Counted from the stretch's first letter, positions 393 through 18,846 are shown. The stretch: DNA of 24,206 nucleotides from Escherichia coli (GCF_003334315.1 NZ_QOWR01000065.1), one strand, 5' to 3'. Notes: generated by a model from the sequence alone, not told the origin. Made by a program: numbers and translations.

Positions 393-419
393 TAAAAAAA
401 TCCCCGCCAAATGGCAGGG
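393..419 (-). terminator. Rho-independent terminator of cspA
   Basis: On the minus strand, CCCUGCCA-UU-UGGCGGGG forms an 8-bp stem with one G-U pair, followed by a run of seven U. It sits about 30 nt downstream of the cspA stop. Confidence 0.7.
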
Positions 420-448
420 ATCTTAGATTCTGTGCTTTTAAGCAGAGA

Positions 449-661
449 TTACAGGCTGGTTACGTTACCAGCTGCCGGGCCTTTAGCGCCGCTTTCGATG
501 GTGAAGGACACTTTCTGACCTTCGTCCAGAGATTTGTAACCATCGTTCTGGATAGCAGAGAAGTGTACGAACACATCTTTAGAGCCATCGTCAGGAGTGA
601 TGAAGCCGAAGCCTTTGTCAGCGTTGAACCATTTTACGATACCAGTCATTTTACCGGACAT
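449..661 (-). CDS. cspA: Major cold-shock protein CspA, 70 aa
   Basis: Translation [70 protein letters not shown] carries the cold-shock domain RNP motifs KGFGFI and VFVHF. Full-length ORF. Confidence 0.97.
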
Positions 662-803
662 AGTGTATTACCTTTAATAATTAAGTGTGCCTTTCGGCGA
701 TATGGCGTGCTTTACAGATTTTGAAGCGTTAAAGGAATGTGCACTACGAGGGGTATCAACGATAACTCTTGAAGGGACTTGCCTTACTACACTGCTTTAA
801 TGG

Positions 804-814
804 TCTGTACGTCA
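804..814 (-). promoter_or_regulatory. cspA 5'-UTR cold box (TGACGTACAGA on the coding strand)
   Basis: Exact 11-nt cold-box motif at the 5' end of a roughly 160-nt leader upstream of cspA. The cold box is an established feature of the cspA leader. Confidence 0.7.
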
Positions 815-828
815 AACCGTTGATGTGC

Positions 829-12017: not shown

Positions 12018-12351
<334 letters not shown>

Positions 12352-12352
12352 C

Positions 12353-12438
12353 GTAGGCCTGATAAGACGCGTCAGCGTCGCATCAGGCAAATGTGCCGGC
12401 CATTGTCGGATGCGGCGCGACCGCCTTATTCGACCTAC
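12353..12438. repeat. REP elements (BIME-like pair of palindromic units)
   Basis: GTAGGCCTGATAAGACGCGTCAGCGTCGCATCAGGC, followed by a degenerate unit ending GCGGCGCGACCGCCTTATTCGACCTAC. Both resemble E. coli REP palindromes. Confidence 0.6.
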
Positions 12439-13004: not shown

Positions 13005-14612
13005 ATGCGTATTTCCTTGAAAAAGTCAGGGATGCTGAAGCTTGGTCTCAGCCTGGTGGCTATGACCGTCGCAGCAAGTGTTCAGGCTAAAACTCTGGTT
13101 TATTGCTCAGAAGGATCTCCGGAAGGGTTTAACCCGCAGCTGTTTACCTCCGGCACCACCTATGACGCCTCTTCCGTCCCGCTTTATAACCGTCTGGTTG
13201 AATTTAAAATCGGCACCACCGAAGTGATCCCGGGCCTCGCTGAAAAGTGGGAAGTCAGCGAAGACGGTAAAACCTATACCTTCCATCTGCGTAAAGGTGT
13301 GAAGTGGCACGACAATAAAGAATTCAAACCGACGCGTGAACTGAACGCCGATGATGTGGTGTTCTCGTTCGATCGTCAGAAAAACGCGCAAAACCCGTAC
13401 CATAAAGTTTCTGGCGGCAGCTACGAATACTTCGAAGGCATGGGCTTGCCAGAGCTGATCAGTGAAGTGAAAAAGGTGGACGACAACACCGTTCAGTTTG
13501 TGCTGACTCGCCCGGAAGCGCCGTTCCTCGCTGACCTGGCAATGGACTTCGCCTCTATTCTGTCAAAAGAATATGCTGATGCGATGATGAAAGCCGGTAC
13601 ACCGGAAAAACTGGACCTCAACCCAATCGGAACCGGTCCGTTCCAGTTACAGCAGTATCAAAAAGATTCCCGTATCCGCTACAAAGCGTTTGATGGCTAC
13701 TGGGGCACCAAACCGCAGATCGATACGCTGGTTTTCTCTATTACCCCTGACGCTTCCGTGCGTTACGCGAAATTGCAGAAGAATGAATGCCAGGTGATGC
13801 CGTACCCGAACCCGGCAGATATCGCTCGCATGAAGCAGGATAAATCCATCAATCTGATGGAAATGCCGGGGCTGAACGTCGGTTATCTCTCGTATAACGT
13901 GCAGAAAAAACCACTCGATGACGTGAAAGTTCGCCAGGCTCTGACCTACGCGGTGAACAAAGACGCGATCATCAAAGCGGTTTATCAGGGCGCGGGCGTA
14001 TCAGCGAAAAACCTGATCCCGCCAACCATGTGGGGCTATAACGACGACGTTCAGGACTACACCTACGATCCTGAAAAAGCGAAAGCCTTGCTGAAAGAAG
14101 CGGGTCTGGAAAAAGGTTTCTCCATCGACCTGTGGGCGATGCCGGTACAACGTCCGTATAACCCGAACGCTCGCCGCATGGCGGAGATGATTCAGGCAGA
14201 CTGGGCGAAAGTCGGCGTGCAGGCCAAAATTGTCACCTACGAATGGGGTGAGTACCTCAAGCGTGCGAAAGATGGCGAGCACCAGACGGTAATGATGGGC
14301 TGGACTGGCGATAACGGGGATCCGGATAACTTCTTCGCCACCCTGTTCAGCTGCGCCGCCTCTGAACAAGGCTCCAACTACTCAAAATGGTGCTACAAAC
14401 CGTTTGAAGATCTGATTCAACCGGCGCGTGCTACCGACGACCACAATAAACGCGTTGAACTGTACAAACAAGCGCAGGTGGTGATGCACGATCAGGCTCC
14501 GGCACTGATCATCGCTCACTCCACCGTGTTTGAACCGGTACGTAAAGAAGTTAAAGGCTATGTGGTTGATCCATTAGGCAAACATCACTTCGAAAACGTC
14601 TCTATCGAATAA
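13005..14612 (+). CDS. dppA: Periplasmic dipeptide-binding protein of the dipeptide ABC transporter, 535 aa
   Basis: Full-length ORF with signal peptide (MRISLKKSGMLKLGLSLVAMTVAASVQA) and solute-binding protein family 5 features. First gene of dppABCDF. Confidence 0.97.
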   Translation: MRISLKKSGMLKLGLSLVAMTVAASVQAKTLVYCSEGSPEGFNPQLFTSGTTYDASSVPLYNRLVEFKIGTTEVIPGLAEKWEVSEDGKTYTFHLRKGVKWHDNKEFKPTRELNADDVVFSFDRQKNAQNPYHKVSGGSYEYFEGMGLPELISEVKKVDDNTVQFVLTRPEAPFLADLAMDFASILSKEYADAMMKAGTPEKLDLNPIGTGPFQLQQYQKDSRIRYKAFDGYWGTKPQIDTLVFSITPDASVRYAKLQKNECQVMPYPNPADIARMKQDKSINLMEMPGLNVGYLSYNVQKKPLDDVKVRQALTYAVNKDAIIKAVYQGAGVSAKNLIPPTMWGYNDDVQDYTYDPEKAKALLKEAGLEKGFSIDLWAMPVQRPYNPNARRMAEMIQADWAKVGVQAKIVTYEWGEYLKRAKDGEHQTVMMGWTGDNGDPDNFFATLFSCAASEQGSNYSKWCYKPFEDLIQPARATDDHNKRVELYKQAQVVMHDQAPALIIAHSTVFEPVRKEVKGYVVDPLGKHHFENVSIE

Positions 14613-14648
14613 TTAAAAGCCATACAAGACTGATGGCAAAGGCAAAAA

Positions 14649-14820
14649 TGCCTGATGCGCTCCGCTTATCAGGCCTACGAAAATTCTGCAATGTATTGAA
14701 TTTGCACGATTTTGTAGGCCGGATAAGGCGTTAACGCCGCATCCGGCATAAACAAAGCGCACTTTGTCAACAATCTGTATACCCGGTGGCGCTGTGCCTC
14801 TGCGTGCAGCGCCATCCGGC
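14649..14820. repeat. BIME: cluster of about three REP palindromic units between dppA and dppB
   Basis: TGCCTGATGCGCTCCGCTTATCAGGCCTAC (about 14649-14687), GTAGGCCGGATAAGGCGTTAACGCCGCATCCGGCA (14714-14748), and CCGGTGGCGCTGTGCCTCTGCGTGCAGCGCCATCCGGC (14782-14820). Confidence 0.75.
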
Positions 14821-14919
14821 AGCAATACTTCATTCCCTGTCCGATAAGGGCGGGAATTGATTTGTGAGCAATACAGACACGCAGTTCCAGGCTGCGGGTC
14901 ACTATAGAGAATCCGGGTT

Positions 14920-15939
14920 ATGTTGCAGTTTATTCTCCGACGTTTGGGACTCGTCATCCCCACGTTTATCGGTATTACCCTTCTCACATTTGCCTTTGTC
15001 CACATGATCCCGGGCGATCCGGTGATGATCATGGCGGGCGAACGTGGGATCTCCCCAGAGCGTCACGCGCAGCTGCTGGCTGAACTCGGCTTAGATAAAC
15101 CGATGTGGCAGCAGTATCTCCATTACATTTGGGGCGTTATGCATGGCGATCTAGGCATTTCAATGAAAAGCCGCATCCCGGTTTGGGAAGAGTTCGTGCC
15201 GCGCTTCCAGGCCACGCTGGAACTTGGCGTCTGCGCGATGATTTTTGCTACGGCAGTCGGTATTCCGGTCGGCGTGCTGGCTGCGGTTAAACGCGGTTCC
15301 ATTTTCGATCACACAGCGGTTGGCCTGGCGCTGACAGGTTATTCAATGCCTATCTTCTGGTGGGGCATGATGCTGATCATGCTGGTTTCGGTGCACTGGA
15401 ACCTGACGCCCGTCTCCGGTCGCGTGAGCGATATGGTGTTCCTCGATGACTCCAATCCGTTAACCGGTTTTATGCTAATCGACACCGCCATCTGGGGTGA
15501 AGACGGCAACTTTATCGATGCCGTCGCCCATATGATCTTGCCTGCCATTGTGCTGGGTACTATTCCGCTGGCGGTCATTGTGCGTATGACACGCTCCTCG
15601 ATGCTGGAAGTGCTGGGCGAGGATTACATCCGCACCGCGCGCGCCAAAGGGCTAACCCGCATGCGGGTGATTATCGTCCATGCGCTGCGTAACGCGATGC
15701 TGCCGGTGGTGACCGTTATCGGCCTGCAGGTGGGAACATTGCTGGCGGGGGCGATTCTGACCGAAACCATCTTCTCGTGGCCCGGTCTGGGACGCTGGTT
15801 GATTGACGCACTGCAACGCCGCGACTATCCGGTAGTGCAGGGCGGCGTATTGCTGGTGGCGACGATGATTATCCTCGTCAACTTGCTGGTCGATCTGCTG
15901 TACGGCGTGGTGAACCCGCGTATTCGTCATAAGAAGTAA
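14920..15939 (+). CDS. dppB: Dipeptide ABC transporter permease, 339 aa
   Basis: Multi-pass membrane protein of the ABC permease family in conserved operon position. Confidence 0.95.
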   Translation: MLQFILRRLGLVIPTFIGITLLTFAFVHMIPGDPVMIMAGERGISPERHAQLLAELGLDKPMWQQYLHYIWGVMHGDLGISMKSRIPVWEEFVPRFQATLELGVCAMIFATAVGIPVGVLAAVKRGSIFDHTAVGLALTGYSMPIFWWGMMLIMLVSVHWNLTPVSGRVSDMVFLDDSNPLTGFMLIDTAIWGEDGNFIDAVAHMILPAIVLGTIPLAVIVRMTRSSMLEVLGEDYIRTARAKGLTRMRVIIVHALRNAMLPVVTVIGLQVGTLLAGAILTETIFSWPGLGRWLIDALQRRDYPVVQGGVLLVATMIILVNLLVDLLYGVVNPRIRHKK

Positions 15940-16861: not shown

Positions 16862-17845
16862 ATGGCGTTATTAAATGTAGATAAATTATCGGTGCATTTC
16901 GGCGACGAAAGCGCGCCGTTCCGCGCCGTAGACCGCATCAGCTACAGCGTAAAACAGGGCGAAGTGGTCGGGATTGTGGGTGAGTCCGGCTCCGGTAAGT
17001 CGGTCAGTTCACTGGCGATTATGGGGCTGATTGATTATCCGGGCCGCGTAATGGCAGAAAAACTGGAGTTTAACGGCCAGGATTTGCAGCGTATCTCAGA
17101 AAAAGAGCGCCGCAACCTGGTGGGTGCCGAAGTGGCGATGATCTTCCAGGACCCGATGACCAGCCTTAACCCGTGCTACACCGTGGGTTTCCAGATTATG
17201 GAAGCGATTAAGGTGCATCAGGGCGGCAACAAAAGTACCCGCCGTCAGCGAGCGATTGACCTGCTGAATCAGGTCGGTATTCCCGATCCGGCATCGCGTC
17301 TGGATGTTTACCCGCATCAGCTTTCCGGCGGCATGAGCCAGCGCGTGATGATCGCCATGGCGATTGCCTGTCGGCCAAAACTGCTGATTGCCGATGAACC
17401 GACCACCGCGCTGGACGTGACCATTCAGGCGCAAATCATCGAACTACTGCTGGAGCTACAGCAGAAAGAGAACATGGCGCTGGTGTTAATTACCCATGAC
17501 CTGGCGCTGGTGGCGGAAGCGGCACATAAAATCATCGTGATGTATGCAGGCCAGGTGGTGGAAACCGGTGATGCGCACGCCATCTTCCATGCGCCGCGTC
17601 ACCCGTATACTCAGGCATTGCTGCGTGCGCTGCCAGAATTTGCTCAGGACAAAGAACGTCTGGCGTCGTTGCCAGGTGTCGTTCCCGGCAAGTACGACCG
17701 CCCGAACGGCTGCCTGCTTAACCCGCGCTGCCCCTATGCCACTGACAGATGTCGCGCTGAAGAACCGGCGCTGAATATGCTCGCTGACGGGCGTCAGTCC
17801 AAATGCCATTACCCACTTGATGATGCCGGGAGGCCGACACTATGA
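16862..17845 (+). CDS. dppD: Dipeptide ABC transporter ATP-binding protein, 327 aa
   Basis: Walker [12 protein letters not shown] signature LSGGMSQR, Walker [13 protein letters not shown], and a C-terminal oligopeptide-transporter ATPase extension. Confidence 0.95.
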
Positions 17846-18846
17846 GTACGCAAGAGGCCACCCTGCAACAACCGCTGTTGCAGGCTATCGACCTGAAAAA
17901 ACATTATCCGGTGAAGAAAGGCATGTTCGCGCCGGAACGTCTGGTTAAAGCGCTGGATGGCGTTTCGTTTAACCTTGAACGTGGCAAAACGCTGGCAGTA
18001 GTGGGCGAATCTGGCTGCGGTAAATCGACCCTCGGTCGGTTGCTGACGATGATTGAAATGCCCACCGGTGGCGAGCTGTATTACCAGGGGCAGGATCTGC
18101 TTAAGCACGATCCGCAGGCGCAGAAGCTGCGTCGGCAGAAAATCCAGATCGTCTTCCAGAACCCTTACGGTTCGCTGAATCCGCGTAAAAAAGTCGGGCA
18201 AATTCTTGAAGAGCCGCTGCTGATCAACACCAGCTTAAGCAAAGAACAGCGTCGGGAAAAAGCCCTGTCGATGATGGCGAAAGTCGGCCTGAAAACCGAG
18301 CACTATGACCGCTATCCGCATATGTTCTCCGGCGGTCAGCGTCAGCGTATCGCCATCGCCCGTGGTCTGATGCTCGACCCGGATGTGGTGATTGCCGATG
18401 AACCGGTTTCCGCGCTGGATGTTTCAGTGCGCGCGCAGGTGCTGAATCTGATGATGGATTTGCAGCAGGAGTTGGGGCTGTCTTATGTCTTTATCTCCCA
18501 CGACCTGTCGGTGGTGGAGCACATTGCTGATGAAGTGATGGTGATGTACCTGGGCCGCTGCGTGGAGAAGGGAACGAAAGACCAAATCTTCAATAACCCG
18601 CGCCATCCGTACACTCAGGCGCTACTTTCCGCGACGCCGCGCCTGAACCCGGACGATCGCCGCGAGCGCATCAAGCTCAGCGGTGAACTACCAAGCCCAC
18701 TGAATCCACCGCCGGGTTGCGCCTTCAACGCCCGCTGTCGTCGGCGCTTCGGCCCCTGCACCCAGTTGCAGCCGCAGCTAAAAGACTACGGCGGTCAACT
18801 GGTAGCTTGTTTTGCTGTTGATCAGGATGAAAATCCGCAGCGTTAA
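17842..18846 (+). CDS. dppF: Dipeptide ABC transporter ATP-binding protein, 334 aa
   Basis: Walker [10 protein letters not shown], signature FSGGQRQR, Walker [17 protein letters not shown] start/stop overlap with dppD. Confidence 0.95.

Follow-up and report, generated by a model that had tools for sequence, protein, structure and literature searches.

Layered palindromes in the dppA-dppB gap of Escherichia coli: a BIME-1 insertion, a REP-derived hairpin at the mapped transcript end and a candidate RyhB-complementary box

The best explanation of the gap between dppA and dppB in Escherichia coli, and in our judgement a probable one, is that of stacked palindromes of differing ages. A BIME-1 (RIP) element at 14626-14781 would be the youngest layer and most likely a passenger, contributing at most redundant RNA structure or an IHF site. 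The older layer would be H3, a hairpin fixed in E. coli that appears to be the remnant of a REP doublet, with the two outer arms pairing as one long hairpin, and it is at H3 that the dppA-only RNA would end. H3 would block 3'-to-5' exonucleases after termination or cleavage further downstream; the outcome would be a stable, abundant dppA message, with read-through RNA carrying dppBCDF at a lower level and Rho-dependent termination early in dppB adding to the uncoupling. For the barrier step at dpp we infer from analogy with other REP structures, whose role as exonuclease barriers is established (PMC12306157, PMC10100675).

Positions are those of the window, that is, the whole stretch of 24,206 nucleotides that was analysed. 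The features of the gap and its surroundings were as follows.

394-821, minus strand: cspA thermoregulator (Rfam match)
12018-12091, plus strand: tRNA (Rfam match)
12129-12262, plus strand: RtT RNA (Rfam match)
12356-12435, minus strand: full-length match to Rfam naRNA4 (CssrE), 69 bits, a REP-based element between the tRNA/RtT region and dppA
14610-14612, plus strand: dppA stop codon TAA (ORF 13005-14612, read from the sequence)
14626-14781, no strand assigned: extended BIME-1 insertion unit, 156 bp (alignment with the O157:H7 empty site)
14650-14674 plus CTAC at 14675-14678, plus strand: REP unit 1, y-type, iREP orientation (sequence, fold, inverted repeats I2/I3, multi-copy)
14675-14902, minus strand: 75-aa GTG ORF, WP_001300936.1, "hypothetical protein" in some RefSeq E. 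coli genomes
14679-14713, minus strand: L linker of BIME-1 (Rfam ES036 [CssrF] match, IHF-consensus-like site)
GTAG at 14714-14717 plus palindrome 14718-14747, plus strand: REP unit 2, z-type (sequence, fold, naRNA4 half-model match)
14783-14819, plus strand: H3, the third palindrome, a 15-bp GC-rich hairpin (fold, copy number, alignment with REP doublets)
14821, plus strand: mapped RNA 3' end (Term-seq, Adams et al. 2021; K-12 3705889, minus strand)
14832-14857, plus strand: H4, terminator-like hairpin with a weak U-containing tail, AAUUGAUUUG (terminator scan, fold)
14863-14872, plus strand: conserved box TGTGAGCAAT, complementary to RyhB nt 41-50, at -57 to -48 from the dppB start
14876-14900, plus strand: H5, conserved hairpin located after the box and before the dppB ribosome-binding site (covariance model, fold)
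14906-14922, plus strand: conserved purine-rich block for ribosome binding, AGAGAAUCCGGGUU, with the start codon of dppB at 14920 (alignment A3, ORF list)
15043 (K-12 3705667), plus strand: Rho-termination region inside dppB, 124 nt into the ORF (PMC7815308)
20509-20574, minus strand: rdlD antitoxin RNA (Rfam match)

The cspA thermoregulator, the tRNA, RtT and rdlD are expected K-12 neighbours.

Layout of the gap and the BIME-1 element

The gap measures exactly 307 bp (dppA, 13005-14612; dppB, 14920-15939, both from the ORF list). The window is K-12-type DNA, with a gap 100% identical to that of E. coli K-12 BW25113 (K-12 coordinate = 3720710 minus window position). Folded as RNA, the whole gap reached -124.3 kcal/mol, compared with -90 ± 4.8 kcal/mol for dinucleotide shuffles (z = -7.2), and none of 100 shuffles was equally stable. 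The structures are real and well above chance, and the stable secondary structure expected by the original prediction on folding the transcript was indeed obtained. The individual hairpins rendered -13.2 (REP unit 1), -20.9 (REP unit 2), -27.3 (H3), -14.5 (H4) and -12.7 kcal/mol (H5).

An inverted-repeat search yielded three palindromes within 14649-14820 (I1, I2 and I5). The original prediction had read these as about three REPs filling the gap. Its three palindromes and its 307 bp stand, but the third palindrome does not qualify as a REP, and the final 100 bp (14820-14919) contain no REPs, holding instead two more hairpins and a conserved box. The correct count is two REPs, which form one BIME-1, plus one unique hairpin that is best read as REP derived.

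REPs are defined by a conserved GTAG foot, CTAC on the opposite strand, and a BIME-1 is a single REP/iREP pair, made of a y REP and a z1 REP, with a long L linker that is well conserved and frequently has an IHF site (PMC3333891). In unit 1, the palindrome GCCTGATGCGCTCCGCTTATCAGGC (14650-14674) is followed by CTAC, and its hairpin (z = -3.5) has one stem mismatch. In unit 2, GTAG precedes the palindrome GCCGGATAAGGCGTTAACGCCGCATCCGGC (14718-14747), whose hairpin gave a z of -4.2 and which matched half of the REP-based Rfam model naRNA4 (38.4 bits); the z1 label of this unit comes from its association with L and does not separate z1 from z2 independently. Both units are imperfect palindromes of the 30- to 40-nt kind, with an internal mismatch or loop, and both have the defining foot. 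Between the mutually inverted units lies an AT-rich linker of 35 nt, toward which CTAC and GTAG point, and this linker together with the REP foot (14671-14713, minus strand) gave a full-length match to Rfam ES036 of 56.7 bits (gathering score, 37.6).

Inverted y and z REPs, an L linker identified by ES036 and the lack of tandem repetition are the features of a BIME-1, and the BIME identity given in the original prediction was therefore borne out, specifically as BIME-1/RIP (two inverted REPs plus L). The element shares with the BIME-1 (RIP/RIB) elements of E. coli its REPs, its L linker, its location at the 3' end of a gene and its many copies per genome. There is no essential difference, the unit here reaching past the two REPs to a total of 156 bp and having short inverted termini. 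The flanking motifs named in the older BIME nomenclature perhaps correspond to this extension. The families ES036, matched over its full length by the L linker plus REP foot, and naRNA4, matched in half by the z REP, are built on repeat units, so that a match to them means "L linker" or "REP" and indicates no locus-specific sRNA. A RIP element in the dppA-dppB gap was reportedly noted as early as the sequencing of the operon, in 1994. The repeat is a known, annotated, textbook element, and the other findings on the gap, apart from the RyhB lead, are also known in kind.

The L linker contains an IHF-consensus-like site, ATTCAATACATTG, at 14689-14701 on the minus strand, with one mismatch to the consensus WATCAANNNNTTR. 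A scan of the window for this consensus gave 25 matches against 21 expected, which is chance level and provides no evidence by itself; only the family context speaks for a putative IHF-type site in L.

A 156-bp insertion unit

The gap of O157:H7 is 150 bp long and lacks exactly 14626-14781, the junction reading GCCATAC followed by CCGG. The insertion site lies 13 nt after the dppA stop codon, and the edges of the insertion show ATAC on both sides in K-12 and CATAC in Escherichia albertii. The full gap was carried by 3,249 of 5,426 complete E. coli genomes (∼60%), and the empty junction by about 2,170 to 2,215 of them (∼40%), including O157:H7. The 156-bp unit, which comprises both REPs, gave at least 40 matches in every one of the 5,426 genomes, in accordance with the high repetition of REPs, which number in the hundreds per genome.

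Paralogous copies of the 156-bp unit, flanks included, were present, for example, at sinI-adhesin and mog-satP, and were ∼90% identical over the whole unit. They have common termini (CAGAYTG...CAATCTK) and short flanking direct repeats, and these copies define the ends of the unit. Two of the loci compared, L083 (1501-1651) and L084 (1501-1656), hold paralogues of the unit with the inverted termini CAGAYTG/CAATCTK. The direct repeats flanking the unit are variable among the three copies compared: GTC, ATC and, at dpp, ATAC or CATAC. From these three copies, the unit resembles a miniature transposable element. A similar behavior is that of REPINs, the REP doublets mobilized by RAYT (TnpA-REP), in which two inverted REPs act as one unit and which also show presence/absence polymorphism, with precise empty sites as found at dpp. 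The edge repeats, however, vary among the three copies, and mobilization of the unit in this way is putative.

In E. albertii the insertion occupies the same site and is 92.9% identical to that of K-12, the flanking DNA being 95% identical. This identity suggests that the insertion may be old, with a precise loss later on in certain lineages. The insertion was absent at the dpp gap in the more distant genera examined.

The operon does not require BIME-1, since ∼40% of the E. coli genomes are precisely without the insertion, and this natural polymorphism suggests that the element is dispensable for expression. Any barrier activity of its REPs would moreover be masked, since H3 lies 3' of BIME-1. 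BIMEs are said to attenuate transcription, a finding attributed to Espeli and colleagues in 2001, and by analogy with that published attenuation the insertion may not be neutral. A further difference between alleles concerns the distance of the first stem to the stop codon. According to a rule attributed to Liang, Rudd and Deutscher (2015) and summarized in PMC12306157, a REP stem that starts less than 16 nt after the stop lowers translation of the upstream gene. In K-12, 37 nt are unpaired after the stop (14613-14649) and the first paired base is 14650, well outside this distance. In the empty-site allele (O157:H7, L002 1192-1245), H3 starts 13 nt after the dppA stop and falls inside the range, and by that analogy the filled and empty alleles might differ in DppA output.

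H3 and the boundary of the dppA transcript

H3 consists of the stem 14783-14797 paired with 14804-14819, and is the most stable of the five hairpins of the gap (z = -4.4). Its sequence occurs just once per genome, in 5,422 of the 5,426 E. coli genomes. It gave no match to the REP-based Rfam model at an E value of ≤1, and its foot has neither GTAG nor CTAC, being flanked by TATAC and CAGC. For these reasons (a single copy, no GTAG/CTAC, no match to the REP model) H3 is not a member of the REP family, in spite of being an imperfect palindrome. In O157 it carries a C-to-T variant, with the pair kept as G-U.

Leclercia, Citrobacter, Superficieibacter and strain RIT691 have a longer palindrome in the same place and with the same flanks. 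This palindrome has the form GCCCGGCGGCGCTGYGC...GGCCTAC...GTAGGCC...GCAGCGCCACCCGGCAG, that is, an inverted REP pair. The outer arms of this doublet both align with H3 of E. coli, in which CTCTGCGT replaces the centre of ∼27 nt. H3 is thus best read, from an alignment of five sequences on which the deletion scenario rests, as a REP-derived relic of an older REP doublet that would have lost its centre. The name "REPv266b" has been given for dppA (PMC10100675), and the relic status of H3 may be the reason why curated lists carry a "variant" REP at dppA.

Published Term-seq data contain a single curated 3' end in the dppA-dppB gap, at K-12 3705889(-) (Adams et al. 2021, PMC7815308, supplementary file 1). 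The sequence printed for it is identical to 14771-14831 of the window, which places the end at 14821, 2 nt past the H3 stem. This end has three entries in the file, which itself spans three growth conditions, and the curated table lists none at REP unit 1, REP unit 2 or H4 (PMC7815308). In Term-seq, an end made by termination looks the same as one made by processing or trimming. A 3' end at the base of a stem-loop, as expected for an mRNA stabilizer, was found at H3.

The stem-loop that uncouples dppA from the permease genes would then be H3 and not BIME-1, since the sole 3' end of the gap follows H3 by 2 nt. The idea of an uncoupling stem-loop, put forward in the original prediction, is retained in view of the end at 14821; its assignment to the REPs of the BIME is not, the boundary being H3. 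The arrangement resembles that of the REP stabilizers of malE-malF and hisJ-hisQ, with a palindrome directly after an abundant binding-protein gene and a 3' end at its base, but at dpp the hairpin at the mapped end is a putative single-copy derivative of a REP doublet and not a canonical REP. If H3 acts as a stabilizer of this type, the half-life of the dppA mRNA would depend on the hairpin and on PNPase, RNase II or RhlB.

Within dppB, a Rho-termination region was reported at K-12 3705667, with a Rho score of 2.06 and a P value of 3.6e-5 (Adams et al. 2021, supplementary file 2, PMC7815308). A Term-seq 3' end also lies inside dppB, at K-12 3705372, window 15338 (PMC7815308). The Rho region at 15043 and the 3' end at 15338 suggest premature termination within dppB. 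The same data show a strong 3' end in the dppA leader, at window 12910 (K-12 3707800), 95 nt upstream of the start codon (PMC7815308).

A different role would be one at the DNA level. L would bind IHF and the REPs would bind gyrase or Pol I, so that a BIME-1 at the end of a highly transcribed gene would act as a nucleoid or topology site, which is compatible with RNA roles. The IHF-consensus-like site in L points in this direction, as do the IHF sites often found in L (PMC3333891) and the location of RIBs at the 3' ends of transcription units, as described in a reference cited by PMC12306157. However, the match to the IHF consensus by itself is at chance level and the element is absent from 40% of the strains, and we regard this role as doubtful.

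The comparison with other species also favours a stem-loop boundary after dppA. In 30 Enterobacterales gaps (109 to 458 nt), the 5' part always held at least one strong hairpin. These hairpins are not homologous, and include REP-type doublets, C-rich/G-rich palindromes and canonical terminators. The 458-nt gap of Brenneria (L032, locus about 1043-1500) holds four tandem copies of a ∼90-nt unit that ends in a canonical terminator, and Pectobacterium (L018, L019) has one canonical terminator directly before the conserved box. That hairpins are always present while their sequences are unrelated argues that structure after dppA is selected as such, REPs being merely one way to supply it.

Nearly all relatives have a hairpin of differing sequence just upstream of the conserved box, which in Pectobacterium and Brenneria is a canonical terminator, with a stem followed by UUUUUU. 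In E. coli the hairpin at this position is H4, which passed a permissive terminator-like scan. H4 could be an intrinsic terminator that leaks and that acts as the main uncoupler, with the end at H3 resulting solely from trimming of H4-terminated RNA. In favour of this, besides the scan match and the shared position, is that the U-containing tail can pair with sequence located upstream of H4. Nevertheless, the K-12 stem is followed by a weak tail (AAUUGAUU), the Term-seq table has no 3' end at H4 in K-12, and trimming of RNA terminated at H4 would require exonucleases to get through H4 (-14.5 kcal/mol) before anything else. We consider it unlikely that H4 is the main uncoupler.

The REPs of BIME-1 could themselves be the mRNA stabilizer or attenuator that sets the DppA:DppBCDF ratio, following the malE-malF and hisJ-hisQ model. 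Both fold stably (-13.2 and -20.9 kcal/mol), REP stabilizers are established and BIME-associated attenuation has been published. Against this, neither REP has a listed Term-seq 3' end, H3 lies downstream and is more stable, the element is absent in other genera, and the E. coli genomes of the empty-site class, including O157:H7, lack it precisely while keeping the rest of the gap. This possibility is quite improbable.

That the minus strand encodes the sRNA ES036/CssrF or a 75-aa protein can be virtually dismissed: although the ES036 match is above the gathering score and WP_001300936.1 is annotated on that strand, the match coincides exactly with the multicopy L linker and thus denotes a repeat instead of a gene specific to the locus, a promoter search of 14400-15100 found no promoter-like site, and the ORF crosses the palindromes and the polymorphic insertion, and so would be broken in empty-site strains. 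Since it extends across this insertion, the GTG ORF is almost certainly spurious. Its annotation across the palindromes in some RefSeq genomes agrees with the warning of the original prediction that the units could be mistaken for small ORFs.

The preferred reading of H3 as the boundary has a more general side. At the dpp locus, the structure that bounds the transcript would be a fixed, single-copy relic of a REP doublet, and the recognizable REPs next to it would be recent passengers, which cautions against assigning REP function from position alone. BIME-1 itself matters little, as it is an annotated textbook repeat that is apparently dispensable here.

The dppB leader and the RyhB-complementary box

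The 3' part of the gap is conserved as TTTGTGAGCAATACAGAC, a hairpin, and then ACTAnAGAGAATCCGGGTT ATG. Among 24 Enterobacterales, TGAGC of the box was invariant and GTGAGCAAT was at least 90% conserved or invariant, while the neighbouring stems varied. The box can form 10 contiguous Watson-Crick pairs with nt 41-50 of RyhB (read from K-12); these nucleotides belong to the core whose capitals in the Rfam consensus denote conservation. The complementarity to RyhB reaches 11 nt in Erwinia and Pectobacterium. The accessibility-corrected energy of the pairing was -11.7 kcal/mol, which makes it the best site in the dppB leader and places it second when both strands of the 24-kb window (48 kb) are ranked together, the sole better site being antisense to dppA. 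This energy was reached by 4 of 400 shuffles. Raw duplex energies, computed without accessibility, were discarded since many sites gave -25 to -35 kcal/mol and there was no discrimination.

The hairpin H5 follows the box. Its covariance model found 26 loci and 10 of 11 pairs were changed on both sides; 87% of the cells were paired, compared with 31 to 43% when the partners were slid, and none of 500 shuffles reached the score, values that come from an alignment fitted to the model, which favours the structure. RNAalifold on a plain MAFFT alignment of dppB leaders returned no pairs, the hairpins being misaligned, and was replaced by the covariance-model alignment. An Rfam search gave no family at the box or at H5. 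A search for sigma-70-like promoters in 14400-15100 found none, and for this reason an internal dppB promoter in the gap is unsupported.

Whether the stretch from H3 to dppB constitutes a RyhB-responsive switch separating dppBCDF from dppA is, in our estimation, evenly balanced. The target of RyhB in such a switch would be UGUGAGCAAU (14863-14872), the near-invariant box, which is single-stranded. The box would be present only on the read-through dppABCDF RNA, given that the dppA-only RNA ends at 14821. Under iron limitation the pairing would lower dppBCDF, either through RNase E cleavage or because a standby or enhancer site located 5' of H5 would be lost, and behind H3 the dppA portion would persist like iscR in iscRSUA.

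Independent published data fit this proposal. Beauchene 2015 names dppBCDF, without dppA, among the new candidates decreased by RyhB. In the Ribo-seq data of Wang 2015, the occupancy of dppA moves the opposite way, like that of the activated targets shiA and cirA; this effect on dppA is weak (p = 0.024) and was not reproduced by a 5' fusion. Both DppD and DppF contain a [4Fe-4S] cluster, which is essential in each. The translations of dppD (16862-17845) and dppF (17842-18846) both end in a four-cysteine motif, C-x5-C-x6-C-xn-C, which matches the [4Fe-4S] ligands reported in the 2025 structure of DppBCDF. The switch would thus follow an iron-sparing logic, with DppD and DppF each needing [4Fe-4S] and DppA needing none.

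The precedent is iscRSUA, where RyhB splits the operon behind a strong iscR-iscS intergenic structure by differential degradation. The order is the same at dpp: an upstream gene, a strong intergenic structure, a RyhB-complementary site and genes with an Fe-S function. In both cases published data show RyhB lowering the downstream genes, dppBCDF as a candidate. Unlike that of iscRSUA, the dpp site is not located at the ribosome-binding site but at 48 to 57 nt before the start codon, from which a hairpin separates it, and both the pairing and the cleavage at dpp are putative. The RyhB-complementary box is the only part of the locus that could be new. If the proposal is true, the box could explain the published RyhB repression of the dppBCDF candidate, would tie it to the Dpp ATPases as Fe-S proteins, and would provide the second case, after iscRSUA, of sRNA-driven discoordinate control inside an operon.

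Other sRNAs that the literature connects with dpp were considered for the same region. The 5' seed of OmrA/B can form 9 bp (-9.4 kcal/mol) with 14823-14831 (CAAUACUUC), just past the mapped 3' end, but this site was only about ninth in the window, indistinguishable from chance, and was rejected. A compilation lists dppB and dppF under omrA. A GcvB scan of the dppB leader gave nothing notable, and in a network-inference paper dppB-F appear under GcvB alone, by way of their sharing an operon with dppA.

A minor sequence feature completes the description of the leader. The direct repeat AGCAATAC flanks H4, at 14821-14828 and 14867-14874. The mapped RNA 3' end coincides with the first base of the upstream copy, for which other genera show no conservation, and the downstream copy falls within the box complementary to RyhB.
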